From the NCBI GenBank assembly GCA_050273025.1, contig CP158635.1, positions 16,492,001 through 16,556,000 of the forward strand: a stretch of DNA of 64,000 nucleotides. Direction: 5' to 3'. The notes beneath the pieces were generated by a model. It ran no database searches. It saw only the letters and a list, made by a program, of their open reading frames with translations, and was not told where the DNA came from. Of the stretch, positions 18,269 to 64,000 are shown one piece after another. Within the stretch, counting starts at the first letter, position 1, and every line of letters begins with the position of its first letter. The position numbers were made by a program, and so were the translations under genes. The DNA is from Cenococcum geophilum. Its lineage: Eukaryota.

Positions 18269-20255
18269 TCTGTGTCCAGGTGCGCTGCCTATTTAAGTTT
18301 AGCGGGGCCCCGACACCCGTTTTCGGGCATCGCTCTCTCGCTTAGCCGACCGCCGCTTTTGACGTCTATAAAATGCTCCATCGCCTTTACTGCCCTCTCT
18401 ACTAGCTCTTTCTCCCTTGGATTTTACTTCTGCCCTAGCCTTACCCCTACTATAAGGCCCCACCCTCATGGCCTGCGCCCGCCCCTTAATACTAAACTTC
18501 TAATTATGACTAATACCGAGATGCACGCTCTTTTAGCTGACGACTTTTAAATATTTAACTATCGTTTCCACTTTTGCGGCCTATATGCTACCGTTGTAAT
18601 CTCGGCATGGACTACCTTAAATAGATACGCTAGATTTGGGGAGGCTGATATTGCGTCTTCTCTCTAAGCCTTGTTTTCTCTTTACGCTTCTTCTATTTAT
18701 TTTCCTCTCTAGTATTCTTATTGGAACATTAATTACGTGACGTAGTTATGGGACTATGAAGCGAGACTAACTGTCTGACCTTGGAGCAACCCCTTTCTTC
18801 TAGATAATAATTAACTATTAACTTTAATACCGCATACGTACTACTATAAGTAATATTCGTGCACGTTAATAAAGAGAGTTATACTAATAATTCTTTTTGT
18901 AGGCTATCTAGGTCTTTAGTTCTAACTTTTATATAGTCCCACTTTATCCGTATTTTATTATCTCAGCTTTATTAACTGATAGCCTACCCCGGAGTTGAGA
19001 CGCCTATTTAAACACTTGGACGTCGCGCCAGAAATTACTTTAGCGCTAGCACTCTACCACGCCATTGCTATGGTTAATTAAAAAATATGTCTTATCCTTA
19101 CCGCTTTAATAATATGACTTAGGAGGCTGTAATTAAAATAAGGAGCTGCGGAGCCTAAACCGTAACTAGTTACTAAAATAACTGCTATAGCAGCAGGAGT
19201 GTAAGTGGGGCAGGAGGGCGCAGCGAAAGGACGGCAAGGGGCTTAGATAAAGGGTGAACCTAACTAAAGGACCACTAAATCAATCTTCCGACTAATGAAG
19301 GAAATGCCTTATTATATGAAGCTATTATAGCGCCGGAACAGGTCAGCAGAGCTTTACGGATATTTTATATAACTGCTCGCTAATTACTCTAGATTAGTTG
19401 ATTTTGTCTCCACTATAGAGTCCCTGTCTTATAAGAAAGAGCAGGTGGCATATTTTAGCGGATAAATAAGATAAATTAAGGCTAATGGGCTAGGATCTAG
19501 GGTATTCTATTGGCCCTCTATCCCCTAGGCATTAGTTTCGGCCCTCTTTAGGAAGACCTAAAATCAAAATCCGTGGAGAATAACCGGGAATATACGGTCT
19601 GGATTCGACGGCAATACTATAATATACTGTTAATCTGGGATGACCACGTTATACTACTATGCTAGGGGCACTTAAAGCATCCACTATTATGACCAGCGAA
19701 GGAGGGAAAGGTTATATGGCCGAAAGGGGTGGAGTAAGCTGATCCGGTACCGCTGATAGATATTAGTGTTGCCACTACTTACAGAAGTTGTAGATACAGC
19801 ACTATTGACATAGATCCTAGTGCCGCAAGGCGTAGATAGCAGTGTTTGTTTGTGCATTTACTAACTAAAAGAAGCAATACTATGCGAGAATATTTGAAGG
19901 ATTTGGTAGGGGAAGTAACGCGAAAGCCTTAGATAACTCCCTAAGTGGCTCTGGCTGGAAGTTAACCCACTAAGCCGATCCTAGTACCGTAGGCACCACC
20001 AATTCCTAGGGGATAGGCGCAATATTTATGTACTGTAACGCCTTGGCCCAAAGCTACGTGAACCAAGCCACCGCCGTTGCTATTGGGTTCGGCGGTAAGT
20101 ATGAAGAGGATAATAGATTGAACTAGCTGAGGACTAGGCTATGCCGAGAGCATATATATAAGAACACGCTCTCTCGCTGATTCCTGGATTATCTCACTCC
20201 TTAGAAAGATTTTTTTATTACTTCTATATCTTTCCATCCTAATCCTTAAATTATA

Positions 20256-22544
20256 ATGGACTCTTAATCTTTTTATATACCTAGAGCACTAACTGCCCGG
20301 ATTTCTAGGCCTAAGCTATACCCCTAATTACCCTATATGCAATTGCCTCTTATTATGGCTAGTAGATAAGGTAGGCAATTTACCAAAAGAAACAAGAGTT
20401 CTACGTTAATTATTGATCTTATAGCTCTTACCCCGGAAAAAACTGTTGTAGAGTGCTAGATAGCTAGAGGTGACCTAACTAGGGCCTAAGGTGAGTATAT
20501 ACGTAGTTAGATTGTAGCAATAGTATCTAATATAATATAGGAAACTCGTCTATCGCCTAAAATAATGTTACTAGGAAAACTTCTGGCGGCCCCCGCGGTG
20601 ACGATGACGACTACCTTCTAGAAGTGGAAGACCTTATTTTTGGGAAACATTAGAGAAAAGAAATGGGAATTTTCAGCCTTAATCCTTAACATGCGACTGC
20701 TGGGCAGTTGTTTGACAATAGGAGTTAGGAAAGTGGCCTTCTCTATGACGGATATAGATTTAGAGCTGGGACTAAAGTATCGGTTAATAGTAAAGGTAAA
20801 TATATTACATTTGAGATTTCTTTATAATCGGCTTAAGGAAATTGCTTATACTATACTATAGATAAACTAGCTACACCGAATACTAGAAAACTATATAGCG
20901 GCCTATCCCACTATAACGCCTAAAGCCCTAAGCCTACTACTGTTGGTGACTAAACTAGCTTTACTTCTATTTCTAGTATCTTAAGTAATATCACGGTTGG
21001 TTATCTAGGTGCTAAACTAGGAAGTACTAATGGCATTAATAATAGCCAGAGCCTTAACGACTAAAACCATAATATTAGCGAAAGTGCCGATAAGGTAGAT
21101 AAGCAGCTAGAGAAGCTAGTTAGAACCATTTTAGTCTCGGAATACCCTCTAACCCCCTCTAAGAATTCCAACTAAGGTAACCCCTAGAGAACTATAAATG
21201 ACACGGGCGTCCGGGGCGAGGAGTTGGCCCCTAATCGCTCCGAAACGTATAGGAGCGGCTCTGGCTCTAACAGCGCTAGCAACTATATAAGTAATTAGAA
21301 CGTCAATACTCTCCAGTAGCAAGGAATTAGGCCATGGAATGGACTGGACCGCGCCTAAATAACTAGGATTAGACGTTCTAACTTCTGTGATGAACTTGCC
21401 GAAGAAGAACTACAGGACGAATCTGTAGTGGGGGTTAGCGATTTTTGCGCACTAAGTCCGACTGAGGTAGATACTGATGACGTTTACGGCGAATACCTTC
21501 GTAGTAAGGGGGTTAACTCTGGACAAGATAGTGACCAGCATTTAGAGTAAACACTTCCCTAAAGCGATTCAGCTATAGAGTATTGTATTAGTAGCAATCC
21601 TGCGGAGAGTAACGTAAGTACGAGAAGAGCGTATTCTTAAAGAGCTTATTAAGGTATGCTTAAGATAATATTAAAAGAACCCTAGCCCACCTAATGCGTT
21701 TTCTTAGAAAATGCTACCTACGAGCATGGCCTAGCTAAGAACGTGAGCAGATTAGACCCTGTGTACTAATTATCACCGGAGTAATAAAGTTAATACGCTT
21801 TACTTTAAGCCAAGGCTCCACTATCTAGCGTTGATGCTCTACCTCGGAATACTCTTACTTAGAAACGGCCTGTCTTACTTATTAATTCCTCTACGCTCCC
21901 TTAAGATGGTTAATCCGCTAAGCGACGCAAACGCTTAAGGGGAAAAACGGGGAAGGCTAGAATGGCGAAGGAAATGCTCCTTTACGCATATCCACCTAAT
22001 GAAAAGAATATGGGTTATACGGTTGAGCGTGTTAAAGCTATTCACCTTATAGATGACGGGTCTATGCTATCCACTGTGAAATGGATGTTATTAGAGGTAC
22101 TAACGGATAGTCTAGTAGGAGAAGAGTATTATAGCTAGTTTAAGGGCTTATTTAAGACGGAGTTTGGAGAAAAGGAGTAGGACCTGCAACGGGAGAAGCG
22201 GCTTTAGAAGATAGTGAGATATCTATGTTACGGAGAGGATAACGATTATATAGTTGAGTATGTTAAGGCTCTTCGCGTTGCAGAGGATGGATCTATACGA
22301 TGCACTGTTAGATGGGCGTTATTAGTGGTAGCGGAGGATGATCTTGGAGAAGATCTGCTTAAATAGGCTAAGAAACTATTTAAGGAGAAGTACGGAGAGG
22401 AGAAGTGGGAGTAGTAGCTTTAGAAGAAGCAGGAGGCTACTAACTAAAAGCCCTAAAGCAAAGGTCAGAAGATTTGGAGAAGGTGACGGGATATTTTTGC
22501 TGGCTATAATAGTTTTAGTATCCCTTAACTGGCATCGGCGTTGA
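20256..22544 (+). pseudogene. low-complexity protein with two C-terminal chromo-like domains
   Basis: YTVERVKAIHLIDDGSMLSTVKW (~22016) and YIVEYVKALRVAEDGSIRCTVRW (~22247), each followed by a helix ending KxxFG/YGExxW. Confidence 0.55.
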
Positions 22545-22806
22545 AGAAAGAAAGATATTTTTAGTATTTATTATCTGGTAACCTAACTAATTGCTTTCGG
22601 CTTAGGTGTAAAATATACTTTTAGTAATTAGATAAACTAGCGAGGTAGGTGAGATCTAGTAATTGCTTCTACTAAAAAGGGTCTCCCTTAAGAAGGTGAC
22701 CCCTTTACTAAAATCACCCCTTACAAACCTACTTTATTAAGCGCTATAAATCTTACTACAAAAAAGCTAAAGCTAGTTCTTTATTGTAACCACTTATTAT
22801 TTAAAT

Positions 22807-23952
22807 ATGTTTTTATTTTGGGATGACGATATACTTCTTCGGCCTGATATATCTATTGACATTAATGAAGTAAACTGTTTTATTAATGGCGACCACAATA
22901 CACGTATTGCGATGTATTAGCAACACATAAGCCAGTTAATAAATTCGCATATCTGCTGAGCTTTCCTCGAAGAAATACCATATGACGATCGTGAGAAATT
23001 ATTTAAGAGCATAGACAAACAAGCACTTTTGAGATCACTTCCCTATATAGACTACGACTAAGCTTAGAAGGTCCTTACAGAATACCATAGGGAAATTAAC
23101 TCTATAATTGAAATTCTTAATTATGTTAATAACTAACAGCGAGCACTATTGATATTCGCGCTTATAAAAACAGCTTGTATAAAAATATTTTATAACATGG
23201 ACGAGGAAAGTAAGGATAGAGCTATTTGCAGTCTTAATGGCAAAGCTGTCTATAACGGGAGAAAGCAGATAGGTGCTGTGGCACTTAGTAGTTATAGTGC
23301 CTATCCGTTAGACTAGACAAAATTCGAAGATTTGTGTGCTTCTTATAAGAAGAAATATAGCTTTAGAGATAAAATATAGAGAGCGAATTGTTGGGACTAT
23401 ACCTATTATGGAGACTGTTTGCTCAATCACTATAGAATGAACTGCATTTAATGCCAAGTTCCACCACATGTTATTCGCCTTTAAGATCGGTATTACTTGT
23501 AGGAACTTAGACTAACCAAGATAAAGGTTAACGGACTTATAGTCTACCCACAAGACCAAATTGTGTACGCGATGGCAAAATTTATAGAAGAAGGAGACCC
23601 TTACTGGTATAAAGCGGAAGTCCTTTATAACTATTGTGGCGCTGTATACAATATAGCGGTATTTAATTTCCTTAGTATACTAGCTTTTAGGCAAAGGCCT
23701 TGCCTATAAATAAGATATATGGGAGGCGGAGGTAGAGGCAATAATAGTGGGTAGTGCGGTGCTAACTAGTGTAGTAGATTTCTGTTGCTTTAAAGAGATG
23801 TCTATATACTCGCTATAGGTTTATATAGTAGCGCTCGAACGGCTCGTTCTATGAGATTAAACAATGGTGCTGCCGCGTAGAATAGATTTTGGAAGTTAAA
23901 AAGGTCTATAATATACTATTTTAAGATCGCAGTACTTTTTATACGGTTATGA
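22807..23952 (+). pseudogene. putative HNH / His-Me finger endonuclease-like protein
   Basis: One continuous frame. De-RIPed it reads NCWDY...IV(H)AMAKF.EEGDP....EVL(H)N(C)C...PCL(Q)IR(H)MGGG...NN. The His residues are inferred from TAT/TAC codons. Confidence 0.45.
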
Positions 23953-24949
23953 TGTTAAAATACTATTTTTTGCTAGTAATGTTCGCTACAGTTATTTCTA
24001 AGCAGATTGTTAGCTTTAATCATTTCTGGAGACGATTTTAATCCGTTTATAATAATGTAATGCTTTTATGCTATACTAAATATAAATATCTAACTAAAAT
24101 GTATTATATTAGTGCGGAAGAACTGACGTATCGGTCTCTAGCTTTATAAGTAGTACTTAGCTGTTATTGCTTATTAAATCATAAGTGGTCTCTGCCTAAA
24201 TCTATATGATGTGGGTAAAAGCAATGCCGCTTTCTAAGCGCTGTGCTACGGTTTCTAAGGCATGTAGCGTAAGTAAGGAGTTAGGAGATAAAGCTGCGGC
24301 GTATTTGGCTAGCTCTGACGTAACTGAGAAGAAGTTCAGGAATATAGTTCCTACTCTATTTGGAACCGGATAAGGGGCTCTATATACTAGTGTTTAGGGG
24401 TAGCCCTAATAGTTAATTATTGTTTAAAGCTAATGATCTAACCAAGCCAAGCTTTATGCTTAGAATTAAATAGGGAACTTACTTGATATTATAAGAAGGG
24501 CCTTAGACACTAGATACCGGTAGAGGCATTAGCTACTCAAATACCCGGAGGTTATGGGCGGTAAAAAGATTATCCTGCAACTATTAATGTGACTTAGTGT
24601 TGCGGCGAAGCAGCTTGCGTGGTTTGATATTTTTAGATTGGAGCTGTGCTTCTAGCGTTAGTTCCAGGCGCGAGGGTATAAAGGGCGTTATCGCGCAGTG
24701 TTTTTTTGCTCTATAGCACTTACAATTCTTAATTCTTTTATTCTGGCCCTAAGCTCTCGCCAGCCATACTTTCTCCAGTTAAGGACCACTTGTAGCCGTC
24801 TGGTCCCGGACAGGTGGGAATTTCTCACCTAATAACAGGCTTGTCTGACCCCGCGAATATAGTCGCCAGTGTTGAGCACGTTTCTCTAATGCCTCCTAGT
24901 AAGATAGCCAAATAATTATAGATCTTTTGATTATACTAACGGCCAAGCA

Positions 24950-25490
24950 GGTGATAATAAAGCTCACTTTGCGGATGTTTCTGATGACAGCTTAGATTGT
25001 GAAAGAGAAGATAAACAGCCTACTAGATTCCTAAGAAGACTAAACCAAATTTTAGAAGGCGTAACCGAAAACGGTGCACTTAAATACTAGGTGGAGTGGA
25101 AGCCTAGGCTGACGAGTATTAGAGCCGCGAAGAGCAATAAGGATTTAAGGTATTGCTCGGTTCACATTATAGATAAAGTGGCAGTTTTGTGCTAGAAGCC
25201 TACTAAGGAGCCTGTGACTAACCTAATGTCCTATAAACTTCGATCTTATTATAAAAGGAATCTTGGCAAGTTTATTAAGCATATTATAAGGTTCTGAGAG
25301 CTTAGAGAGGCGCTTGAGAAGGAAGACAGAAAAACACTTGTGGCTTTGGTAGATAAGAGTGGAATATAGAAGGGGCTTAGATTGACCCTATGAAATGCCA
25401 TTAATAAAAGTAGTAAAAGGAGATCGACGGCGAATCTTTAAAAAAGAAAGAGAAGTAGAGATTACCCCCAAATATATAGCGTGTGGTAAG
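24950..25490 (+). pseudogene. chromo-like domain protein (3' exon)
   Basis: QILEGVTENGALKY(Q)VEWKP followed by (W)KPT(E)EPVTNLM. Confidence 0.5.
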
Positions 25491-26199
25491 CTTAGGCCTA
25501 AATGATTTAGGAATAGAACTTTCTCCTATAGTACTTTGAGCTGCAAGAACTTTACTTCTAGTAGACTTCGCGATTGGCTTTCCTTCGCAGTGTCGTAATC
25601 TTTGTTAAATATCGTGAGGTTTCCGCCCGTACGATATTGCCAAATTTCGTCAGCAATTGTAGAGACAGTGTTATATTCCTGTTTTGGCGGCAATAACGGG
25701 GGCGTAGTTAAGGGGGAAGCGTACGTCTTTAATTTAATTCTCCTGGCCAACCTAGGCGATTCTCTAGGGCAACTATGGCGATTCTCTAGGGCAACCAAAA
25801 AGGCCCTTGCGTATAGGCACACGCGTTCGCTATAATAGCTCCAATTTATATAAATAAGGGTTTATTTACGCAATTTAAAGTCAAATTGGTGGAGGTTGCG
25901 GCGTTATAGCAAAATAAAATCAGCTCTGCTCGTTATAAAGAAGGCTTGCTTTATAAATCCGCATGTCCTAACTTTGCGCTTTCGGAATTAATAAGAGATT
26001 ATTAAGTGTCGGATAGGGCGATTAAGAATAAGAACTCTGTTGATTAAAGCCGGCTCTAGAAGCTATCTATATACATAAGGTTTAGTCCGCGTGAGCCTAA
26101 TAGGGATCCGAATTGGACGTTAAGCAATGAATAATTATATATAAGGTAGGTATAGGCAATAGAAACAGGTAGTAAGATATAATCAAGGTGGTGAGATAT

Positions 26200-29100
26200 A
26201 GGGTGGTAGTGTTGAATTGAGGTTATAGAGCTAAAACTCTGTGTATTGCTTATTTTCTATATAGGTGGTTAAAGAGATTTTAAGGAACTTTGACCGCCGG
26301 TTAAAGTTGTCTAATTGGGTGCTTGTGGGGATTTAGCGACTCCTATCCCATGAACTCGCAGGTGCCTATTAAGATTTTCCGCTCGTAAAAAGTCTTTAGC
26401 GCATTTTGAGCCCTTAAATTTGGAATTTGGCATATCTAGAGGTATTAGAAAAAAAAAGGTCGTAGTATGAAGCCGAACTTACGAGTCCGTCTATATTGAA
26501 GCATGTCTTGCCTTCTAGCGTAGCTCCTCGAATATATATTATAATTTGCTTGTGGGGCTGGTGTGGACAGTTCCGAAGTGGAAGTGCTATTGCTGTTTAT
26601 AGGAGAGGTCTTTTTCTGCCGTACGGGCAGTGCAAATGGATGACCTCTGTGCATTCCCAAAGAACTATCAGGAGTTGTTGGGAGGGTTTATAGTGGTTCT
26701 ATCTGCCTAGTCTTTATACTTAACTAAGTAAGTAAATTATTAAATATTTCTGAGGACGAAGGGCTAGCCACCTAAAGGATCTTATTCTGAAGTGGTTGAC
26801 GCTTTATTAACTCTGGATGCGCTATATGGCATATCTAAATCTCGCTTTAAATCTCTCCAATATGTTATTTATCTTTGGCATCGATATTAATAGTTTTACA
26901 ATAAGCTGGGATATGTTCCTACTTTGTTTAAGCAGTGATTGAAGTAGTATAAGCTCTGTAGATGAATTATATTAGCATTTAGTAAAAATAGTAGGTGCGG
27001 TAATAATAGTAGATTAAATGAGACTAGATATATTTGATGGAGGTAGGCTATGTTAAAGGCATAGGTAGAGCCACCTTTATTTATAAGTTTATTTATAAGA
27101 ACTGTATCTATGATGTTAATGTCACTTTTAGGGTATGTCTATTGCGTATTAGGGTTGTAGAGATCTGTGGCGTAGCCGGCGGTTGTTCTAAAGGCCTAAT
27201 AGTGCTGTCTATTACCTAATAGTACCTAACCTTTAATGTACGGGTTGTTAGGAGGGGGTATAGAGTGCGCGCACGGATCTAATAACTTATGTCTTATTAA
27301 TGCCCGCTATATATTACTAAGCTAGGGAGAGTTATAGATATACCGGCAATAATGTAATGGGTATTTAAGATATATACGGAAGGCCACGCTGAATTACTCG
27401 TTGTTGGCTAAGAATTGGAATCCCAACTTATTGAACTTTGTGGAGGGGAAGGGATAGAGACATTTAATAAGACATTTAGTTATAAGTTAAGAGACAACTA
27501 AGACAAAGTGTACGTAAATACGATCTGGGTCGATAGACAGTAGTACGATGGTGGTAAGGGAATCCGATCTAGGTCGACACTCTATAGTTAAAATCCTTAA
27601 CTATTTAGACGACTAACAGCAAACACCGCCATTATATTATCCTCCCAGATGCCGCCGTACCACTAGACTATCTCTTTCTTATACAACAAGCGTGTCTCCC
27701 ATTATATTTTACTTTAGAAGCCTGGCAATTAGAACAGGCTCTCTAACTGCGTAAATCTCTATTAGGCGCTTCTAGGAATTCAAGGGCTCTATTTATATGA
27801 GTTTGCAGGTGCTTAGTAAAAGTGTCCGCTCGTGAAAAGTTTTTATTGCATTTTTGGCAGTTATGTTTTGAATTTAATATATCTAGATATATTAGAAATA
27901 AAAAAGAATCGTAACATAAAGCCGAACTTACGAGATCGTCTATGTCGAAGCATGTTTAACCTACTAGCGTAGCTCTTATAATAGATATTACAATTTATTT
28001 GTGGAGCTGGCGTAGACAGGTCCGAAGCAGGAGTGTTGTTGCTGTCCGTAGGAGAGGTCCTTTCCTGCTGTATAAGAGGTATAAATGGATAGCCTTTGTG
28101 CATTTCTAAAGAACTATTAGGAGTTGCTGGGAGGATTTGCTATGGTTCTATCTGCCTGGTTATTGTACCCGACTAGGTAAGTAAATTGCTGAATATTTCT
28201 GAGGATGAAGGGCTAGCTATCTGAAGGGTCTTATTCTAAAGTGGTTAATGCTCTGCTAACTCTAGATACGCTATATAGGACTCCTAAACCTCGCTTTGGG
28301 TCTCTCTAATATATCTATTGTTTGTCTTTAGCATTGGTGTTAACAGATAACCTAAATTAAGAGATTGTTACAGTGTCTCCTCTAAATTAGTAAAAGTTCC
28401 GTATATTAGAGGCTGCCACGCGCTATTATTATCTATTATCTCTACAAGTGCCGAAGCTAAGAAGTCCCACCCTAGATTTATATTGTTATTGCCGGAATCT
28501 TTAATTAAGTAATCCTTAGGGCTGTTATCTATACTTTCTATTCTAGCTAAGTGTATGGAGGTAGACGATTGAGAAAAGGTAGGCGGCATTGGGGCTATTG
28601 GTGCGCGTAGGCAGACCTTAGGATTATTTAGAGTCTAAGATAGATGATTTGCCATCCTATTAATTATTTGGGGAACTCCTATAACAGGCCACGTATTGTA
28701 AGTGCCTGTAATTATGTTACCCTGCAGGCCGAAGTTCGTACTACTAGGCGGCGCTGTTGTCTATGCGTAGGTGTTAGTGGATAGCACTAGATATGCTAGG
28801 AAGGGGATAGATGTACTAAGCTAGCAATAGTATCGGGAGGTTTAATATATACTTAGTCGCCATTATACTTCTCTCTATATTCTTATACGTCTTGCTTTTT
28901 TATATCTTAATATATAGGTGATTAAAGTAGATGAGCTTGAATAATCTCTAACTGTATGTTTAGATAGCTTGGCATATCTAATAATGGAGGGGTAGCTAAC
29001 TGAAGGACTATATCCTGCAATTTTTCAGACTCCTTTGGCTCTAGAATTGACCGCTTAAGGCCCGGAAATATTCCTGGTATACTGAGGCTGTTAATTGTTA

Positions 29101-30740
29101 ATGAAGTCTGCGAATCGCGGCCTGATAGTACTTGCTTTTCATTATATAAGGCTTTAGGAGTAGGTAACTATATGGGTTTACTGAGGGTAGAATAGTCATG
29201 CGGATCTACTAACTTATATGTTATTAATACTGGCCACCTTAGCAAGCGCATAATGGTTATAGATATACCGGCCACAATGGAATTATTACTTGAGGTATAT
29301 TTGTAGGGCTGTACCAAATTATTTGTCGCTAACTGAGAATTAGGATCCCGCCTTATTGGATCCTGTAGAGGCGCTATAGGATAAAACTGGTTCGAATCCT
29401 CAAATTTGATTTACTTAGTGTTAAATTCTACCATTTCTAGGACCGGTACTGTTGTGCACCACCCTTTAAAACCCGAACTATTTGGTTTATTCTAAAAATA
29501 GTTTTGCACAATATAAGTGGCATAGGCTGCCGTATTCCGACACATAACACTAATGCGTTCGCCTAAAATTTCCGTAGCTGCAAGCCCTTCCACCGGTCGT
29601 TTACTGATCGGGGGTGGGTGGGAATCTATATATGGGCCGCTGTGTATGGGATAAATTACAATTTCGTGTTCTGTGCGACTGCTGGCGCACCTAAATGACT
29701 ATGTACATTTTGGATGCCCGTATTTAAAGGCTCTTGTATGCCGGTCTATATACTCTCTTAATACTAAATTAGACAAACTACTAATAAGGGGTAGCTCTAT
29801 ACTTACTCGAACTTTCTCTTATCCGGAGTGGGTCCGTACTTATATTTAGGTCAATATGGGCAGTGAAAGAGACGGTCTGCTCTAGGGGGGATCTGATAGT
29901 AGTGGTGTTGACGTCTTGGTGGCCTATTAGCCGGATTTGTTTGACTTCTTGCCTTAGTCTCAGTTCCCGTATTGGCTTGTTTGGACTGGGGATTTATAGA
30001 ATATTTAGTAATTGTTGTAGAGGATTGTAAATGCCTTCCAATATATAATTGCGCTTGGTTGGTAGGAGAAGGAATGCCGGCCGAAGCTATAAGGGAGGAA
30101 GTAGGGGGCGGGGTAAATGGGAAATCGGGCCCGTATCCTGAATTACGTGTAATTAGAAATTTATACGTATTAGCAAACTAAGGAGGGTTACGGACATACC
30201 TGTAAATAAACCTAGTTGAAAATTGGAACTCGACTCCACCAAATCCAGGTTCGTCTGAAGGGGCGCCGCGATATTATTTGGGGCTAAATCCAGGTTTTGA
30301 GTGTGTTGTCTTATATGGTTTTTTAATTTGTACCTCTTAGTGAATCCGTTGCCTTCTTGGGATTTCTTGCAATTTGAATATGGGCAGAGGTAAGGGTTGC
30401 GGCCGCCGTGCATTCTATAGGCGTTTCTTTTATGGCGATAGAGGTTACTAGAAGTCGACACAGTCTCCTAGCAATCCTTAAATCCGCATTAAACCCCCGG
30501 TATTTAGTTTGGGGTTAAATACGGATTTTGAGAGTGTTTTCTTCTTATATGGTCTCTTAATTTGTTTCGCTTAGTAAATCCGTTACCTTCTTAAGATTTC
30601 TTGCAATGTAAATCTGGGTAGAGGTAAGCGTTGCGGCCGCCGTGCATTCTGTGGGCGTTTCTTTTATGGCGATAGAGGTTATTAGAAGTCGACTTAATCG
30701 TCTTTTGGCAATCCTTAAATCTGCATAAAACTTTCCGCAT
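26200..30740 (-). pseudogene. large multi-C2H2 zinc-finger protein with internal duplications
   Basis: Two 78-aa units, each CxxxxC..H..(H)RMHGGRNxYLCP..C...EGNGFTKR.KL..HIR.H (30290-30740). Further fingers near 29650-29880: LFHCPY...RE(H)MDRHTRAFK(C)GHPKC. 3' limit approximate. Confidence 0.65.
26340..28335. repeat. ~540-bp diverged direct repeat, copies at ~26340-26880 and ~27790-28335
   Basis: Colinear matches at ~1450-bp offset, e.g. AAGCCGAACTTACGAG and AAGTAAATT..TAAATATTTCTGAGGA. Confidence 0.85.
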
Positions 30741-31299
30741 TAGAATTAGTCCTATAAGTGGCTAGCACTAAAGGTATTAACTCGTCCGGAAATCGGGAGA
30801 TATGGATAAATAATTTGCTATATAATGAGATATGTTTTAATCTGAAGGGGAGTGGAAGTTAAGGTTAATATAAGGAAGAACCCGACTAGCTCTCCATAAG
30901 GCATCGTTAGCGTTAAGTAGTTGCGCTAAAGGCTTGTTAGGTATAGGGGGTTATAAAAGAGGCTTGTATTGTCCATCATTAAGGATCTCCCGCAGATCTG
31001 TTGGATGAGGTCCCGACGGAGAGAGACTGACGGAGGGGGAGGAAATGGGCTTGCACCTACCATTTCTTGGGCTATGACCCATGGTATCGGATAAGGGGTA
31101 GATATAGAAGAAGGAATGTTGTATTTAAGTTGGCGTTCGTTGTCTGTGTTATGGTTGGCTACCTGATCGGACGTGTTCACCTGAATTAAGGTGGCTGGCT
31201 GTAAATGTGCATGGTTTACAGCCGCTTGTCTTAAAGTCTGTGGTAGGGTAATTCCCGTGGGGTACGTATTGTATAATGACTGCCTTTAGATTCTCTACT

Positions 31300-34200
31300 G
31301 GATTAATTTTAAGACTACGTGAAGGATTTATATTGCGCTTAGGAACTGTATACTTTAAGAATTTGCTTAATCCCTACAAATTTAGCGCGCTAATAAACTT
31401 ATATGCATAGAACTAAGAAAATTCTACAATAACTATAGAGAAGTAGACTTAAGTTTCTAACCTTTAGTTAGGATGCAGATTGTTAACCGTCTCCTATTGT
31501 CCACCCGCTGATAAGTTATATGCCCGTGAGTGATATTGTAACTTGCCTCTGCTTCTAAGTCCTTAGTTTTTTTAACTAGTCCCCCTAAAGGATGTATCCA
31601 TCCGTCTTAACCTTAAGAATATAAAGATGAGATGTTGACTTAGTATGCATAAATAATAACTAGATAATTGAATACTTATGTAAGCAATATTGTTGAATAC
31701 CGTACTAAGATATAGCCTGACTGGACATTGTTGAGTAACCTCTATCGCAACGTTATTTGCGAAGTCTCTGAACCACTCCTTGCGAGATTGATAATCTTTA
31801 TTCTCTTTAGGTTGCCGCTCCGCCCAGTTTGCAGCCTTTGTTATAAGTATTATAATATATTTGAGATGTAGATCTCCATCGGAACCCTCTCGTAGCGGTT
31901 AGTATTGAAATATTCTTTGGGGAGCGTGAGAATAAGGAGGGAGGTATTATAGATTTTGTTCTTTAGGAGAGTTAATAACAATTGTATGCGGAAATCTAAT
32001 CTACTAGTAGGGTGTACGAATTATGCTTGAAATTTCTATTAATACTGCGCCGGTAACACTACGATCTATTAATAATATGGAGACGAAATCCACTCTCACT
32101 ATCCCTAGTTATATGGTGACGCCCTAAATGCGACCAGTTACAATTTTCCTTTGTTAGGTTTATAGGTTAGGAGTGTATAACGGGGCCGTAGAGTGGCTCG
32201 TATCCTCTGAGTTCCTAAGAGGTAACGAGGGAGATTTGTATGCTCTTTTTGAGCCGAGATTTTGTTCTAGTGTTTTAGCGATGACGGATAAGGAGATGTT
32301 TATGGGCTGTAAGATGTGGAGTCGTTAACGTAAAACCTTATCCGTTTGTCTCCATTTCTGTCAATGTATCTATATACCTGAATAGTAGATTGTTTATAAG
32401 TCGTTTCTGGGCTTAGGTTGCTAGCTGGTTGGCCTGGCCTAAAATAGGATAAAATATATCTGGCCTATACTATAAAAGGTGAGAAGCGAAGGTTAAAGAC
32501 AGATATGAAGTAAAAATTGCCCTATAACTGTTAGTGATTTAAATAAGAGTAGCTAGAAAAAAAGTACCTAGTATATAGCTAAGCTATCCTTTAGAAGTTT
32601 TAGTGGGAGGACTAGGGATATAATAATCGTAACACTTGTGAGAAATAGTGAGATGACTTGTATCTAGCCCTAGATTCTAGCGCCTCTACTTATTAAGCGA
32701 AGTAAATACTTTTAGCATTCCTAGGTTAAGAAGTAGATTAGATAAATTTGCTTTATAACAAGAATGCTATATATTGAGCAGCGTACTCCGGCTTTTATCC
32801 TAAGAGTTCTACTTTAATAAATTCAGTGTTTAGAGTCTAAAGTTAAAACCTTTTATTTACACAAATGCCGAAAATAATGTCAAAGCCACCTCTACTATGG
32901 TAAGAAACGACCATCCGGCTAGAACCCTGTAAGAGATGGCTTGGCCAGACGTTTCTGCTACGCTAGTATTGAGTAATGTGGTAGTTTTTAGGATTTGCGA
33001 ACGATATTAGCTATAGAGAAGGAGGTTAGGCACCGCACTTATAGATAAAAATATTACCATTTCTAGCGCGCAATCTATTACTGCTAGGGAAATATTTTCG
33101 AACTTCTGTCTAGTCTTGTGCTGCTTTTAGGCGATTTCTAAAAATGCAAATGCCGAAACTGTAAAAGTAATGTGTGCCCCGTGAGCAATGACCATAAAAA
33201 CCTTAGTGGAGCTGTAGAAGGGTGTATGTTTCTAAAAAAGGATGTAAATGCTAATACCTATTGCAAGCACGTAAGCTATAGTAGTAGTAATAGTGAAGGA
33301 AAGCACGATTGCGGTAGTATTGAAGGAATAGGTAGAGTCTATTTCAATAAATAAGTCCTGTTAGTCTAAGTGGCGTAGAAATAAGGTAAATAAGACTATA
33401 GTTTACCCAATTACGTTAGAGCAGAGTGCATCTGCAAGGAATATAAGGTAAAGAAAATTGGTGAGGCCTTAAGGCAACGGGGCAATTGTGTGATTAACGT
33501 GCGTCTTTGATCGCCAGGCGTAATTGCTCTATATACTACTAAGCGTCCGTCCTCCCCCTGCCGTGATATTTGATATTGGACACATTTAAGGATTTCTTGA
33601 TAACTGCCCTCCCCTAGAAGCCAACGTCAGCTCCCTGATAAAGGGGTATTGCTATAGCAATTACTTCTTTCTTCTTGGGGAGCGCTCTATGCCGTAAAGC
33701 CGAAGAAAGATTGGGATTTGTTGTATGTTAAGCTGCCGCTAAATTTATATGGGAATGTTAATATGCCCGTAGCTTACAGCTTATAGCCTTTGAATGGCAA
33801 CTCTATTTGTTTCTAGGGATCGTTTGTGAAGGCTATAAAGATGACACCGAGACTCAGGCTAGGCCTGCCCGTGGGATCTCTGATAAAAAAATCGTTGTAG
33901 CTTGGGGGTTTTATGGAGTCTTGTATTGGCTTCCGCCATGAGTTTGTTTCCGGAAGTTTAATAAGGCGTTGAAAATCTAGCCTCTCTATGGTGGTATTAG
34001 TACGTTAGTGCTGTTATTTTTTTTGATTATTTGCGTGAAAAGCGCCTATGTAAGGAGGCTATGAATATTCCTTCCTGTTTGGGAGAAGGGGCTATGTTAT
34101 TGAATTGGATGGTGGCTATAGGTTGTGCTACTGAGAACGCTAATATAGCCATGGCTATATTAGCGCTCTCAGTGGCGCTCTCTAAACGACCTTAAGGTAT

Positions 34201-34300: not shown

Positions 34301-34499
34301 ATTTACGCATTTATCATTCGATAAGGCTATAAAGAACGAAGAGGTACTTTAGTTAAGTGTCCTTTATATAAATTCGCTAACTCTTCTATAAGTTTAAAGA
34401 TCTTGTTGCTTCCTTAGTCTAGACATTGCCTCCAGAAACAAAGCAGGCTTTAGGATCTCTTGTCTTAAACAATTATTTAGTATCTAATCCTTCTCGAAA

Positions 34500-34770
34500 A
34501 GAATTATAAGCCGCTGAGCTTCTGTCTGATGCTAACGGTCCCTTATTAAACGACAGCTTAATATTAAACCCCTCTTAAAATGGACTACGAATGACTAAGT
34601 TTCCGTTTAATGCTAACGATCCTTTATTAAACGACAGCTTAATATTAAATCCCTCTTAAAATGGATTATAAGTCGCTAAGCTCCCGTCTGGTGCTAACGG
34701 TCCCTTATTAAATAACAGCTTAATATTAAACCCCCCTTAAAGAGAACTACAAATTGTTAAGATTTTAAAA
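34500..34770 (+). repeat. 81-bp tandem repeat x3, in frame
   Basis: GCTAACG unit starts at 34531, 34612 and 34693. Confidence 0.9.
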
Positions 34771-35920: not shown

Positions 35921-36243
35921 AGGGTGGGCTATATAACTACCTAAACCTACTACTTGCCTAGGATCCTTCTACTCTTTATAAATTTTATAAGGGCGGGCTA
36001 TATAACCACCTAAACCCGCTACCCGCCTAGGATCCTCCTACTCTTTATAAATTCTATAAGGGTAGGCTATATAACCACCTAAACCTGCTACCCGCCTTGG
36101 ATCCTTCTGCTTTTAACGAATTCTATAAGGGCGGGCTATATAACTACCTAAACCCGCTACCCGCCTGGGATCCTTCTACTCTTAATGAACTCTATAAGGG
36201 CGGGCCATATAACTATCTAAACCCCCTACCTGCCTTAGACCCT
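35921..36243 (+). repeat. 69-bp tandem repeat x~4.7, in frame, Pro/Tyr/Gly-rich
   Basis: Unit starts at 35921, 35990, 36059, 36128 and 36197. Confidence 0.92.
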
Positions 36244-47453: not shown

Positions 47454-48039
47454 TTACCATTTCTCTACCTAGTAACCTCTAATAATGTCCAGCGAGACTT
47501 ATAGCAACCTATTATTTTATATTAGGCTGTTTATATCGCTGGAGGAATATTTTATACCTAATCCTCTTTAATATGTTTCTTAAACACTAACTTAATCACA
47601 TTTTTAAAGACAGACTCTATTATATTAACTCTTAGCCGCAAAACTCCATTCCGTTTCTACGGGTGTACTTTATTAGCTAAATTTAAAATGGCCTATAGGG
47701 ATATGCGTACTTCTAATTCTATAAGCTTCTCCCACTTACCCTTTAGCACCTTTACCCTTTACTCTAAGGCTACCCTTTCCTCCTATAGTTACCATCCTGT
47801 TAGATAAGTAGAATACTTCTAAGAGGCATATATACCTTTTTAAGCGCTAATGCATCCTCTAGGCCCTCTATAAATAGAGTGGAGGTGTATAAATCTGGAT
47901 ATTGAGTGTCGGAGGTTTGGCTAGATGCTATACCATTTCCACCAACAAAGTAGTATAAGAAGCTGTGTGTATTGACTTCTCTAGTATCGGCGGTATGCGT
48001 AGGCACATTACCCTCCGTGGGCGATTTTTGGAAAGCCAT
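47454..48039 (-). pseudogene. small coiled-coil protein, paralog A
   Basis: MAFQ... and YTSTLFIEGLEDALALKK, an intron, then ERVALE(Q)RV. Homologous to 63068-63770. Confidence 0.55.
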
Positions 48040-48743
48040 TCCGTGAATTGAAATATTGGTAGAACTGACGATAGCTAGTTGAGTATGGAGCGTGCCTTAT
48101 ATATTTGGTAGCTACTCCTTAAGTAATTAACAGTTTAATAAGAGCTTAGGAATAGATTACCAGAGGATGGCGGTTTGGAGTTTTTAGCGTGTTTAATAAA
48201 GAATTTTTTTTTTAAAGAATAAACGTCGTTTAATAGAGAATTCATGCAGCTTACCCGCAAAAATTGTAAAAGTGGTCTAGAAATTCTAAGAGAAAAGTCA
48301 AGTTCTTGGGCCCCCTGCTTTATAAAGCTGTGCCGTAGTTAACGCTTACGCTCGGTTGCGGGTTAGTAGAGGTAAGATTGTGCTTTAGATTTCTTATCAT
48401 TATGGGCTCTCCGGCTTTCTACTTTACAAAAGCTGTGCTGTAGTACACGCGTTGCATTTGTTACGCGCTAGGCCTTTTACTAAACAAGTTACGAATAAGG
48501 GATTAGTAGGGATAAAGTAGGGGACGCACATTCTATCTGTGCTTACTTATATAAAAGCGGGGTTATATGATAGTTACAATCTATGCAGGTAATAGTTTAT
48601 ATGAGTTAATGCGATTATTACTCTTGTTTCCCTTGGCAAACTAGATAAATAAAGAAATTAAATGCGCTTTGTTTATCTAATTTCCTTAGGGAATTTAATA
48701 AGAAGCGAGACGCGGCGAAAACAGGACTAGGTAATAGTGGTGC

Positions 48744-49628: not shown

Positions 49629-50570
49629 TTAGCGGAGACGATTAAACCAGCTAATATGTCTTTTAACAGTATTCTTATCACTACTTCCCTTATAGCACTT
49701 TATTCTATTCTTTACCTCCTTAACTAGTTTATCTAACGTCTCTACTAGCTTTCCGCTATATTTACCGCATATAACCTATATATTGCCTCTCCTATAAAAA
49801 CCATCCGGGCAGCAAATTACTATTTTTCCGGTTTTTATGAACAATCCTAGCTCTATCAAACTTATTAAGGAATTGGTTCCCGGATAAAGATATATAGCGA
49901 TTACTATGGCCTTCTCCTGGCATCTAAGCCCCTATTAAACTTACCTGCAGAATTCCGGGTTACTGATGTCTTGCTTAAGATTGGCATTACAGTAATCCCG
50001 GCGCGGATTTAGAACCGTGATTGGGAGCAAGCTGAGGCGCTTTATTATATCATTTTGCTATTTGGGCGCTTTCCCCATTTCTATACTATTAGCAAGAAAG
50101 ATAGATCCGCTAGTAAGAGGAGCTATATCTAGTAGTTAGTAGATAGAAAAGCCTAGGTGTATATCCTGCGTAGCAGGCTTTATAGTGGTCGGGGTTGTGG
50201 CCGAAGACTTGATGGTAATCTTAGTAGGACTTATAATAGTTAGGATAGTAGGCGTAGAGTTGGCGGAAAGTTTGGTAGGAGTTGAGACAACTAGAGCTAT
50301 AGCTATAGATTTAGCTAAGATGTTGGTCGGGGTTATAGCCGGAGACTTAGTGATAATTCTAGTAGGACTTATAATGGTTAGGATAGTAGGTGTGTAGTTG
50401 GTGAAAAGTTTGGCAGGAGTTAAGACAACCGGGGCTGTAGCTATAGATTTAGCCGAGATGTTGGTTAGATTTATAGCGATAAACTGGAAGCGTGGGGATA
50501 GATTGACTTAGATATGGAATAAAAGCCTTGCCTGTTAGTCCTGCATAAAGAAGACAGTAGGTGATTTTAT
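49629..50570 (-). pseudogene. nucleoside 2-deoxyribosyltransferase-like protein (Nuc_deoxyri_tr2 type) with S/T/P-rich N-terminal repeats
   Basis: SIFLA(G)SIEMGKAPK(W)Q, ITVLNPRRD, ISLIELGL and GKIVICCPDGFYRRGN.QV.C. 138-bp tandem duplication at 50187-50465. Confidence 0.8.
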
Positions 50571-54628: not shown

Positions 54629-54649
54629 TATACTACTTCCTATTAATAC

Positions 54650-62290: not shown

Positions 62291-63067
62291 ACTTTTAGGT
62301 ATATTCTTGTAGCAGAATCCCTAAGGATCTCTATATTATTAACAAGCTAATAAAATAGGAATGGCTATAACCACCTCGCTTACTTACCTACTTACCCACT
62401 TACCTACTTACCTGCCTCACCCACCTTATCTACCTTATCTACCTCACTCGCCTTACCTACCCCTCTACCCGAGATAATAAGCACGGTAAGCTTTATAATT
62501 TAGTTTCCGAAGCTTGTTTGACGGGCCTTATAAGGGTTAGCTCCTCCAAGCTGGTGAGGGTTTTCTCTTAGGTAGTCGCGGACCACGACTATGCCGCGTA
62601 TAGGCTAGGATTGCACGAGCTGGGCCAGATTAGCTAGATCCCTTATAGCTAAGATTATCCCCTGTTTATAAGCGCAGACTTTATCTAACCTATATTATAT
62701 TGACGCCGGCCCCCTGCCAAAGCTTTTCTATACTTTATGAAGTACCTCTACCGCATATCAGACGTGGTGGCGCAGAGTAGGACATTAAGGGAGAATCGGT
62801 GATTGTGTACTATTACCTAACACTAAGCGACGCCCGTTAATCACACTATTTTATATTGCTAGACGTTTTTTAGCTGTTTATATCGTTGCTCCTATGCTAG
62901 GGGTTTATAACATTTGTCTAATGACCTGTATTACTTATTTATAAAAATATTATAAGGGAAGCTCTTATTAAACAATTAAATACTTAAGGGGCAGCTACCG
63001 AATATATAACGCCACGCTCGGTACCCAACTAGCTCTTAGCAATTTTATCAACCTTTTGATTTACAGA

Positions 63068-63770
63068 ATGGCTTTCCAACCATCTTCTAATGATAGTAAT
63101 GCACCTACGTATGTTACCGATGTAGAGAATGTTATCAGTTATTAATATTAGCAAGTATTTTAATATCTCCTTGCCCCCCTAAATCCTCTAAGCGACCCCC
63201 TAACTTATTCGTTATGGGATATATCTATTAACGGCTTGATTACGCGGAACTTCTTATACCCTAACGTTAGTGGGAATAGTAAGGCATCTAGTTAAACTTC
63301 TAAAAATCAAGATTAAGAGTTATATGCTCCCACTCTATATATGGAAAGTCTGGAGGATGAGTTAGCGGTTGAAAGGGTATATATACCCCTATAAAGTGTT
63401 TTCCTTATTTAATAAGCGGTAACCGCAGAAGGAAAGGGTAGCCTTATAGTAAAGGGTGGAGAAACTAGAGAGTATAGAGGCGGAGCTTGCAGCTTTACGG
63501 GTATATATACCCTCCGAACTATTTTTTTAATTTGGTTAATAGAGTGGCAACTATAGAAACGAGGTAAAACCCTAAAGTAAAGGGTTAAAATAATAGAGGA
63601 CGCCATAAAACCATTAGTTAAGGTTATGTTTAGAATGCATCTTAAGGGAGATAAGGTATAATATATCCTCCTAGCGTAATATGAACTATCTAACCCAAAA
63701 GTCTAGGTTGCTGTAAGTCTTATTAAATGCTATAACAGTCTGTTAAAAGACAAGCGGTAAGTTTTGGTAA
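63068..63770 (+). pseudogene. small coiled-coil protein, paralog B
   Basis: MAFQPSS... and YAPTLYMESLEDELAVER, an intron at the same position as paralog A, then ERVAL(QQ)RVEKLE. Confidence 0.55.
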
Positions 63771-64000
63771 ATAGTAGGTATTTGAGCAGCTATTATTCCT
63801 ATTGGATTATAGGACGCTAGGAGTTAGTCTTTAAATTGCTTTAGCGAATAAATAGTAGATAGGTTGTACTTGTATTAGCGACTATTGCTTTTACCTTAAG
63901 AGAATGCCTTAGTGGCAGCATTTAGTCCTAATAATCTATTTGAGGTATAAGAGTGTTATACGGCTTGGCTAATCGTCGTAGTTGCGCATTGCGTAAACTG

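Follow-up and report, generated by a model that had tools for sequence, protein, structure and literature searches.

A terminus shared by many copies of RIP-damaged, gene-bearing DNA interrupts a Copia reverse transcriptase region

In the window (the whole 64,000-nt stretch of DNA that was analysed), a Copia frame that comprises gag and integrase and, of RT, the first motif (...KARLVLCG) occupies 14961-18264/18269 and ends there, the exact break lying at 18264/18265. With five Copia polyproteins, tblastn gave matches only at 16065-17474 (integrase) and 18039-18278 (the start of RT, corresponding for instance to amino acids 795-870 of the 1310-aa P0065), and it was silent for the Copia remainder downstream of 18278 to 64000 at E<=1, in line with an earlier, sequence-only reading in which the Copia pol stops mid-RT and does not resume. 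The features at the locus are as follows.

14961..18264, + strand: RIP-mutated Ty1/Copia with gag, integrase and RT start, cut after the KARLVLCG motif (translations; SH3_retrovirus, E 5e-8)
18265..18285, + strand: left terminus of the repeated element, GTAATCTGTGTCCAGGTGCGC, present in 33/33 metagenome loci with unrelated flanks
18265..24078, + strand: conserved end module, in all long copies (loci compared by blastn with the window and with one another)
20663..22444, + strand: G0, relic of a 594-codon gene, in frame over its full length in L006 and L022
22807..23670, + strand: G0b, relic of a 288-codon orphan gene, in frame in the window and four loci (85% mean column identity)
24079..27533, no strand: segment peculiar to the window copy; L021 has 636 unrelated bp instead
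27534..30903, no strand: interior colinear with other copies (L021, L002, L017)
30000..33500, - strand: G1, gene relic with a C2H2 finger pair, tandemly duplicated (30276-30741); weak zf-C2H2 matches
34477..36915, + strand: G2, 813-codon frame without assigned function; homologue transcribed
37790..43882, + strand: RIP-killed Blm10/PA200 (PSME4) paralogue with BLM10_N, HEAT_PSME4_mid (E 4e-120) and PSME4_C
45342..47342, + strand: G4, multi-intron gene relic; weak, below-cutoff DUF6594 match (E 0.0054)
47359..48147, no strand: repeat unit, present again in inverted orientation at 62959-63864 (67-76% identity)
48148..48160, - strand: 13-nt stump of a second, inverted terminus (12/13 nt); full inverted terminus beside the same flank in L009
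48161..48721, no strand: repeated flank sequence, also beside the element terminus in L009 (84% identity over 560 nt)
49796..50102, - strand: relic of a nucleoside 2-deoxyribosyltransferase-like (Nuc_deoxyri_tr2) domain, PF15891 positions 3-105 of 105, E 1.6e-20
62959..63864, no strand: inverted partner of 47359-48147

A RIP signature spans the window from about 14 kb to 64 kb without gaps. In all 25 two-kb bins of 14001-64000, TpA/ApT is 1.17-1.80 and (CpA+TpG)/(ApC+GpT) is 0.51-0.93; the ranges for the seven bins of 1-14 kb are 0.50-0.91 and 1.10-1.41, respectively. Stop-free frames of at least 120 aa number 28 in the window, with 24 in 1-14 kb vs. 4 in 14-64 kb. An alignment of 34 copies of the element's first 460 nt yielded inferred C>T changes at 616/1171 in the CpA and 927/2303 in the CpG context, 459/2702 at CpC and 240/1834 at CpT, with transitions and transversions at 2275:177. 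The RIP damage that had been proposed for the block is thus borne out by both the dinucleotide ratios and the aligned copies, and because of the C>T changes at CpA and CpG, the genes of this copy are pseudogenes.

A RIP-tolerant 65-nt pattern placed just right of the break retrieved 33 metagenome contigs from four datasets, and in every one of them the element starts at the identical nucleotide (GTAATCTGTGTCC...), which supports the earlier view of the junction as the terminus of a mobile element found in many flanks. Homology to the window begins at 18262-18266 in 30 of the 33 loci and at 18243, 18256 and 18259 in the remaining ones; the left flanks are related neither to one another nor to Copia, and at 5 of the 15 long loci the RIPped element adjoins un-RIPped genic flanks. 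The junction might in principle be an assembly break, or a rearrangement beside a non-mobile segmental duplication, with no mobile element at all, and neither a right end nor an empty site was seen; this explanation is, however, contradicted by a terminus that is identical to the single nucleotide in independent contigs with all flanks different, and we give it a negligible chance of being right.

There is no conserved flank position among the 33 loci, and therefore no TTAC(N7)A-type site. Over its first 7 nt, the terminus is identical to the native target sequence in the Copia, as inferred for one target site from a related, uninterrupted Copia in L030, which reads GGT AAT TTA, i.e. GGTAAT(T)T, at the break; that this core homology comes from one such site counts against the reading we prefer below. 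Read on the opposite strand, the terminal GTAA gives TTAC. About 40 nt from the element end there is a palindrome rich in GC, CGGGGCCCCG. This palindrome, together with a constant end, a variable interior and captured intron-bearing genes on both strands, would suit a Helitron-like or other transducing element, in which a single fixed end is the recognised one and host genes are captured by read-through past the opposite end, leaving a constant end with variable gene-bearing remainders. However, the terminus GTAA... is neither TC nor CTRR, the flank base adjoining it is A in 11/33 and T in 5/33 loci, and there is no Helitron_like_N or PIF1 match, so we consider such an element very improbable.

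Four copies cover more than 10 kb from the terminus. L020 and L025, with differing left flanks, are 91% alike over the full 10.1 kb available, and their lineage has only the first ~6.5 kb in common with that of the window (in other copies, the end module carries ~620 bp extra before the lineages part, hence ~6.5 kb). L021, L002 and L017, again with left flanks all different, follow the window colinearly as far as 30903, 29268 and 28125, respectively, each stopping at a locus or contig end. No copy has an inverted terminus within 10 kb of the element end. As no right end was found, neither an element length nor a direct repeat or empty site can be given. Within the segment peculiar to the window copy, 26314-26893 duplicates 27761-28346 (580 bp), and 26020-26320 is a small repeat that is also present in other loci.

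Breakpoints within the window recur at 24078 (a repeated homology end in L020, L021, L022 and L025 by blastn), 44138, 48147/48160 and 48744-49049, with 44138, 48744 and 48984 common to several runs and contigs of run X11 departing from the window at 48147; such recurrent boundaries count against a large continuous element. The inverted pair 47359-48147/62959-63864 is 88-91% identical when transitions are ignored. In L009, the full inverted terminus adjoins the same flank at the same nucleotide as the stump at 48160; for the 9-mer of the stump alone, 1.5 occurrences per 50 kb are expected by chance. The region right of ~44-48 kb is likewise RIPped and repeated, and includes other repeat units and the stump of a second, inverted copy. 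The block is therefore an element with repeats nested in it or adjoining it, rather than a demonstrable single unit of 46 kb. Of the proposed single mobile unit of >45 kb, the terminus and the multi-copy DNA stand, but not the unity of 18269-64000, as copies share the first ~6.5 kb with one lineage, and with another the stretch up to position 30.9 kb, where those loci end, and the interior holds breakpoints and an inverted stump.

The same observations could be explained by a mosaic, in which the element would be a short, probably non-autonomous unit of ~6.5 kb (18265 to just past 24078), and the rest RIP-degraded independent repeats and duplicated host-gene segments lying alongside. The parting of the window and L020/L025 lineages ~6.5 kb from the terminus, the homology end at 24078 in four loci, the breakpoints common to runs, the second terminus stump, and the inverted partial duplicates and small repeats in the window all agree with this, and the ~6.5 kb common across lineages fits a short element with unrelated neighbours as well as a larger one. 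On the other hand, L020 and L025 remain 91% alike for 3.6 kb past the divergence point despite their different left flanks, L021, L002 and L017 continue like the window to 28-31 kb from equally dissimilar flanks, and there is no terminus-like sequence at the ~6.5-kb divergence point. We therefore regard a mosaic as a tentative and somewhat unlikely account.

Throughout 30-50 kb, each stretch is matched by several copies that have diverged by transitions, both in the probable genome of origin and in two other runs. In run X1, 1647 contigs aligned to this part of the window, 1227 of them less than 99% alike; summed depth was 184-930 in all 30 bins, whereas single contigs, among those listed, had 46-50 (such a sum does not equal copy number), and differences amounted to 543-1317 per transition class vs. 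25-44 per transversion class. The same multi-copy, transition-diverged pattern was seen in runs X5 and X11. Together with the colinear loci, this confirms that the DNA right of the junction is multi-copy and RIPped; the copies multiplied and were therefore exposed to RIP. From an RNA run under the same species label, 12524 reads aligned to 30-50 kb, 9362 of them less than 90% alike, and their differences from the window were predominantly T>C (938) and A>G (534) vs. C>T (133) and G>A (161). The reads map strand-specifically, agree with ORF orientation and cross spliced joints: in a run bearing this species label, these genes also exist as an un-RIPped lineage that continues to be transcribed and spliced.

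About 20 closely packed genes had been counted earlier; roughly 8-10 gene-like units are supportable, and Myb/SANT gave no match. Intron-bearing, cellular-type genes nevertheless lie on both strands; the non-transposon genes present are broken, and include the Blm10-like gene and the PF15891 domain, besides the weak C2H2 matches. G0 has a low-complexity N-terminal half, an internal direct repeat (21988-22182/22219-22410) and, by eye, two chromodomain-like repeats at 22016-22410; a word-indexed database search and Pfam gave no homologue. G0b appears RING-H2-like and Tudor-like by eye, and a profile search of 1.84 billion representatives returned five matches, four being 36-110 aa fragments of the same gene and the fifth a 211-aa protein (E 5e-8) with a weak RING match. 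Homologues of G1 are transcribed and spliced (RNA first mate on +; joints 32522/32570 and 32994/33047). G2 contains coding tandem repeats (81-bp x3 and 69-bp x4.6) and a hydrophobic segment at its C-terminus, with RNA depth up to 233 and the first mate on -. RNA depth for G4 reaches 498, the highest in the 30-50 kb stretch covered, with joints at 45662/45736, 45981/46041, 46257/46303 and 46534/46605, GT..AG being listed for two of these.

The Blm10/PA200 cargo is a fast-evolving paralogue. It shares the BLM10_N, HEAT_PSME4_mid and PSME4_C architecture of the proteasome activator, and is 68% identical to the intact relative P0001; 70 stops fall in 1642 aligned codons, 61 of them opposite Q/W/R, and 338 of 497 mismatches are undone by T>C/A>G, with 55 in the opposite direction. 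RNA of its homologue has joints at 37561/37633 and 43819/43870 (GT..AG). P0001 itself is only 45% identical to its nearest ordinary orthologue, and in a tree its branch is 1.9 against a median of 0.15 (~12x), with P0002 as neighbour among Pleosporales-like sequences. P0002 has a C-terminus of the ...YFA type, which would dock on the 20S proteasome, and P0001 terminates in ...HTSWRP instead.

Six-frame Pfam scans of 18001-64000, which are weak on RIPped DNA, gave no match to DUF3435, DDE, Helitron or viral domains, in agreement with the earlier failure to find a recombinase, transposase or viral gene in the window; the Copia's own integrase and RT were likewise missed at E<=0.001, which only SH3_retrovirus reached. 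The less-RIPped L006 end and the L020/L025-type interior were also without DUF3435, DDE, RepHel or another enzyme. Starships are giant cargo-mobilizing elements of Pezizomycotina with a DUF3435 tyrosine-recombinase 'captain', as far as described in the available text of PMC11162782 and PMC10104507, and the block had been proposed as the captain-distal end of one. Under this explanation, a single Starship would extend from 18265 to beyond 64000, with the captain right of the window and the Copia RT resuming after it. The absence of Copia through 45.7 kb after the break, the cellular-type cargo genes on both strands, and the reported RIP of Starships (PMC10104507, available text) are consistent with it, and the captain-distal placement gains some support from the 7-nt match of terminus and target and from GTAA as the complementary-strand reading of TTAC. 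The label itself cannot be assigned: no captain or auxiliary Starship gene was detected by the Pfam scans, the terminus is high-copy, unlike Starships in the available text of PMC11162782, the supposed element contains repeat boundaries and the stump of a second terminus, and the flanks have no conserved target position. We consider a single Starship of this extent unlikely.

We thus favour, with a probability of about 0.5, the reading in which a large, high-copy mobile DNA element, longer than 10 kb, inserted into the RT region of the Copia and truly ends at 18265. The element would have a conserved end module of ~6.5 kb with two orphan genes, one chromodomain-like and one RING/Tudor-like by eye only, and a variable gene-bearing interior that the window lineage has in common with other copies to at least 30.9 kb, and that probably continues through the C2H2, Blm10-like and DUF6594-like genes. 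We speculate that the element is moved by an enzyme that acts in trans, is encoded outside the window and might recognise a short core, GTAATCT, common to the element end and the target; the leading candidate would be a Starship-type tyrosine recombinase beyond the window.

Among known systems, the AT-rich isochores and large RIP-affected regions of RIP-competent ascomycetes resemble the window in its 50 kb of RIP dinucleotide signature, in the fall of GC from 42-51% to 34-42%, and in the sharp border to un-RIPped housekeeping genes. Such regions usually consist of recognisable LTR and DNA transposons, whereas here the Copia is the sole classifiable transposon, and the remaining DNA belongs to an unclassified element with genes of cellular type. 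ToxhAT, a ~14-kb TIR-bounded gene-carrying transposon of wheat pathogens with long TIRs and hAT-like remnants, RIPped in some genomes, is similarly a medium-to-large DNA element with non-transposase cargo genes, but the element here has no inverted terminus within 10 kb and no hAT domain. A Starship-like element is the leading, if unproven, reading. It differs from Starships in that no captain was found within 2 kb of this end or elsewhere in the window, in its at least 34 termini, compared with the 'low copy number' given in the available text of PMC11162782, in its flanks, where no position is conserved in the manner of the A in TTAC(N7)A, and in that neither a right end nor a direct repeat or empty site was seen. 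Like Starships, it is a DNA element that carries ordinary intron-bearing genes, occupies many different insertion sites, combines a conserved end with a variable interior, and is affected by RIP. As far as the available text of PMC10104507 goes, homology to the target, TTAC(N7)A, is found in Starship termini; the element here likewise has a short terminus/target identity, and its terminal GTAA corresponds, on the opposite strand, to TTAC, the core of the HEPHAESTUS site.

Ordinary housekeeping genes free of RIP occupy the first 14 kb of the window, where Pfam recognises a GMP-synthase-like GATase, BCCIP, a Rieske-type fragment, Macro, an NF-Y histone fold and a CLC channel with CBS domains (GC 42-51%, TpA/ApT 0.50-0.91, (CpA+TpG)/(ApC+GpT) 1.10-1.41). 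RIP is indicated by TpA/ApT above 0.89 and (CpA+TpG)/(ApC+GpT) below 1.03, and a RIP-affected repeat combines a C>T bias towards CpA with the presence of duplicated copies. From 14 to 64 kb both indices are RIP-positive in all 25 two-kb bins (TpA/ApT 1.17-1.80, (CpA+TpG)/(ApC+GpT) 0.51-0.93, GC 34-42%), and both the CpA bias and multiple copies are present; of the window's 28 stop-free frames with 120 aa or more, just 4 fall within this part, and for its last stretch, 50-64 kb, the evidence consists of the RIP signature and repeats. When 34 copies of the first 460 nt of the element are aligned, C>T change is inferred at 53% of CpA, 40% of CpG, 17% of CpC and 13% of CpT sites, with 2275 transitions to 177 transversions. 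The signature begins about 1 kb ahead of the Copia gag (window 13900-14961), right behind the intact housekeeping genes; no LTR was identified in this interval.

Ty1/Copia elements carry gag, protease/integrase and RT-RNase H in that order, with LTRs at both sides. In the window, a single frame from 14961 holds gag, integrase and the first RT motif and terminates at ...WKARLVLCG, giving the order gag, integrase and first ~76 aa of RT; the remaining RT and RNase H were not found within the window, nor was an LTR pair. A tblastn search with five full-length Copia polyproteins, themselves retrieved with the relic, matched at 16065-17474 and 18039-18278 and, at E<=1, nowhere else up to 64000, in agreement with the sequence-only reading that the Copia halts in mid-RT and does not resume in the window. 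SH3_retrovirus (E 5e-8) is the sole Pfam domain recognised at E<=0.001 in this heavily RIPped Copia, which indicates that domain detection is weak on RIPped DNA.

GC-rich sequence makes up the first 200 bp to the right of the break. A RIP-tolerant pattern built from bases 18300-18364, unique in the window, matches 33 contigs from four metagenome datasets. Homology of these loci to the window starts at 18262-18266 in 30 of the 33 (at 18243, 18256 and 18259 in the remaining three), and when aligned by eye all 33 begin at the position of window 18265 with GTAA(T/A)CT(G/A/C)TGTCCAGGTGCGCTGCC; the terminus sequence is GTAATCTGTGTCCAGGTGCGC. Flanks are unlike the window Copia and, save for a few other repeats, unlike each other. 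Among the 15 longer loci examined, 5 have the RIPped element directly against flanking DNA that is rich in ORFs and un-RIPped (GC 45-49%, TpA/ApT 0.69-0.92). The same end in 33 loci with different flanks excludes an assembly break at the junction, and is what had been predicted for the terminus of a mobile element. A candidate second terminus at 54481 is a degenerate match by chance, and fuzzy searches for an inverted terminus returned noise alone. As a separate observation, a 167-bp piece of the window copy (18723-18889) is lacking in most of the other element ends. In one metagenome locus (L033:330-420) the terminus faces a related but different one (GTAACTCTGTGTCCTAGG...CCATTTTCGGG) head to head across 4 nt, which suggests a sister family; this flank, considered as a right end, is instead a left-type terminus of that sister family.

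Within 15 nt of the terminus no flank base is conserved, the one regularity being A/T richness at -4 to -8, and the base at -1 is mixed (A 11, C 8, G 9, T 5). Locus L030 (1000-1477) holds a second insertion of the element, lying 27 codons further along the RT of a related Copia than the window site (18240-18290); counted by eye, the 21 nt preceding the two insertions match at 15 positions, a hint of some sequence preference. At the position of the window break, the uninterrupted sequence of L030 reads GGT AAT TTA. Judged from this related Copia, the window target would thus already have contained GTAAT(C/T)T, the first 7 nt of the terminus. An excerpt of PMC10104507 describes Starship termini as carrying target-homologous sequence instead of making a duplication, and HEPHAESTUS as inserting at TTAC(N7)A (PMC10104507). 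The first four bases of the terminus, GTAA, read TTAC on the opposite strand; a TTAC(N7)A site of the HEPHAESTUS type is ruled out here by the lack of a conserved flank base. Three of the 33 flanks (L003, L004 and L029) have TTAC exactly 10 nt ahead of the terminus, where by our own estimate about 0.13 such flanks would be expected by chance. Rfam and tRNA scans of the window gave nothing, and thus no 5S rDNA or tRNA target.

Features to the right of the terminus (window coordinates)
20663-22444: G0, orphan gene relic of the conserved end module, in frame across copies
22807-23670: G0b, second orphan gene relic of the end module, in frame across copies
~38.2-43.9 kb: complete Blm10/PA200 architecture, from six-frame Pfam
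47359-48147: repeat unit, with an inverted partner at 62959-63864
49796-50102: Nuc_deoxyri_tr2 domain, from six-frame Pfam

How far the element extends was judged from its copies. L020 and L025 differ in their left flanks and are 91% alike across all 10.1 kb compared; with the lineage of L021 and the window, sharing stops after the first ~6.5 kb. L021, L002 and L017, each in its own flank, are colinear with the window to 30903, 29268 and 28125, where the locus or contig ends; all three are missing window 24079-27533, in place of which L021 has 636 other bases. These extents argue for an element that probably exceeds 10 kb and combines a conserved end module with a variable interior. Its right end was found neither in the window nor in the loci, and no locus has an inverted copy of the 13-nt terminus downstream. 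The copy in L006 is truncated at the equivalent of 22695 and gives way to un-RIPped DNA; adjoining it, at L006 13019-16144 in element orientation, is an intact, un-RIPped, low-complexity ORF of 1042 codons. A 7.8-kb insertion (L016:1492-9290) interrupts one copy at the equivalent of window 19201-19207, and the 7-nt overlap of window coordinates there may be a target duplication. The short repeat at window 26020-26320 is found again, in both orientations, within or next to the element in L004, L011, L012, L017 and L026, and looks like a small non-autonomous transposon.

For the deeper interior, contigs of three DNA runs and the raw RNA reads of one run were placed on 30001-50000 at a likeness of at least 80%. 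DNA run X1, which may be the source sample, accounts for 83% of the sampled words; runs with shares below 0.2 (X5-X20) were left out as habitat evidence. From X1, 1647 contigs were placed, 1227 of them less than 99% alike, and summed depth ranged from 184 to 930 over the 30 bins, single contigs among those listed having 46-50, the summed depth being no copy number and taken solely as a sign of several diverged copies. Differences were C>T 1043, G>A 1317, T>C 951 and A>G 543, each transversion class contributing 25-44; X5 and X11 (organism B) gave the same pattern. Several diverged copies thus exist throughout 30-50 kb.

The contigs repeatedly depart from the window at 44138, 48147, 48744 and 48984, and a 304-bp indel spans 48744-49049; these recurrent points mark internal repeat boundaries. 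Read in the inverted sense, bases 48148-48160 agree with the element terminus at 12 of 13 nt, and L009 has the complete inverted terminus on the same flank at the same nucleotide. We take these bases for the probable stump of a second element copy rather than the first copy's right end. Taking 48160 as a right terminus with a TIR, for an element of 29.9 kb, is disfavoured: the 9-mer involved is expected 1.5 times by chance, the adjoining repeat unit ends at 48147 in other contexts too, the inverted end that L009 carries complete on this flank is of the left type, and RNA coverage spans the site. Of the proposal of one 46-kb unit, a mobile terminus with copies of more than 10 kb stands; the single unit is unsupported, and the internal boundaries oppose it in its simplest form. 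A short element within a repeat mosaic, which would accommodate these boundaries and has the colinear copies of more than 10 kb to account for, is somewhat unlikely; a single Starship spanning the whole block, against which the same boundaries speak, we consider quite unlikely. Our leading reading, at a probability of about one half, is a large cargo element with nested repeats, for which Starship-type mobilisation is the leading guess.

With stops read as X, six-frame Pfam scans of 18-64 kb gave weak matches to C2H2 and DUF6594 in addition to the Blm10/PA200 and Nuc_deoxyri_tr2 features. No Myb/SANT, recombinase, transposase or viral domain was matched in these scans, which are weak on RIPped DNA; the Myb/SANT genes that the sequence-only reading named among Starship cargo found no counterpart, and that reading, too, could find no recombinase, transposase or viral gene in the window. 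Mapping genes by stop density gave no discrimination. The end-module relics G0 and G0b are present in all long copies. Homologues of G0 were absent at E<=0.001, and a five-copy G0b profile retrieved 5 proteins among 1.84 billion representatives, four of them G0b fragments and the fifth a protein with a weak RING match. Chromodomain-like, RING-like and Tudor-like character of G0/G0b was judged by eye only, and Pfam gave no match on the L006 end copy or the L025 interior.

The Blm10-like frame (37790-43882) has the architecture BLM10_N, PSME4 mid HEAT and PSME4_C, and is 68% identical to P0001, an intact 1671-aa Blm10/PA200 homologue on a 19.1-kb contig; the gene model of P0001 lacks the N-terminal ~300 aa. 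A T>C or A>G change in the window codon reverses 338 of 497 mismatches to P0001, compared with 55 in the opposite direction, and 61 of 70 stops lie opposite Q, W or R. The nearest ordinary orthologue of P0001 is only 45% identical, and its branch (1.9, against a median of 0.15) falls beside the homologue P0002 among Pleosporales-like sequences, a long-branch placement that is unsure. The low identity and the long branch point to a putative captured host paralogue that has evolved fast. A search for P0001 relatives in metagenome contigs gave 46 pattern matches and 0 confirmed. A further homologue, P0055, has a branch of 2.17 and deviant composition and lies beside P0034, near a Venturia sequence; P0055 may represent another case, in a different lineage, of a Blm10 paralogue accelerated by RIP. 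The C2H2-bearing interior is colinear in 3 other copies, and we infer that the Blm10-like gene is linked to the terminus.

In the RNA run X21, which has the same species label as X1, first mates lie on the + strand at 30-33.5 and 47.3-48.7 kb and on the - strand at 34-47.3 kb, in agreement with the ORF orientations. The joints are spliced, three being listed as GT..AG, and the differences from the window are nearly all T>C (938) and A>G (534). Strand-matched, spliced reads with such differences show that at least five neighbouring genes have expressed, un-RIPped homologues; short reads cannot tell whether these homologues are linked to one another or sit within an element. Cytosines of the + strand were hit by RIP more than those of the - strand: across 30-50 kb T>C differences exceed A>G, and GC skew is strongly positive (0.14-0.20) over 22001-34000.

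Overall, the earlier observation was largely right, and its key prediction of a shared terminus in different flanks is borne out. We further speculate, as an unlikely reading, that this is an undescribed Pezizomycotina cargo DNA element: of high copy, with a fixed GTAATCTGTGTCC end that would recombine at a short matching target core and an end module of orphan chromatin-reader-like and RING-like proteins with no recognisable recombinase, it would capture and amplify host genes, such as the Blm10 paralogue evolving about ten times faster than its orthologues. A giant cargo element in dozens of copies would mean that gene-carrying transposons can far exceed reported Starship copy numbers, and that whole host-gene paralogues, here a proteasome activator, are fed to RIP while one lineage stays expressed; a short non-autonomous repeat beside other repeats would be nothing unusual in a repeat compartment degraded by RIP. 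With a terminus fixed to the nucleotide and 33 independent insertion contexts, the family is readily traceable in any Cenococcum geophilum assembly.

Helitrons have a 5' TC, a 3' CTRR with a hairpin near the 3' end, insertion between A and T and a RepHel protein; in contrast, this terminus begins GTAATC..., the -1 base is mixed, and neither Helitron_like_N nor PIF1 was matched in the six-frame scans. TIR transposons carry terminal inverted repeats, a target-site duplication and a DDE transposase. Here no locus has an inverted terminus downstream, the only one of the window, at 48160, being more probably the remnant of a second copy, and no DDE domain was matched in the six-frame scans or in the L006 end copy. 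Our literature search found no paper holding both "Starship" and "proteasome activator". Starships, as an excerpt of PMC11162782 describes them, are of low copy and combine cargo, direct repeats and, in some cases, TIRs with a DUF3435 captain at the 5' end, the boundary usually lying no more than 2 kb from the captain start (PMC11162782). Their boundaries are well defined, the direct repeats match the target, and other genomes have an empty site. No DUF3435 was detected at E<=0.01 in six frames of 18001-64000 or in the L006 end copy, a search of limited sensitivity on RIPped DNA, and a captain may lie beyond the window; in place of low copy there are 33 metagenome loci in addition to the window, with multiple diverged copies in all three DNA runs. 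The likeness lies in the non-transposon cargo (G0/G0b in all long copies, the C2H2 interior in three). Of the boundaries, one end is placed at single-nucleotide resolution in 33 loci, with 7 nt that would equal the Copia target, as judged from L030; neither the other end nor an empty site was found. Because there is no captain within the window and the copy number departs from the description, we do not file the element as a Starship member; in several respects it is nonetheless Starship-like.
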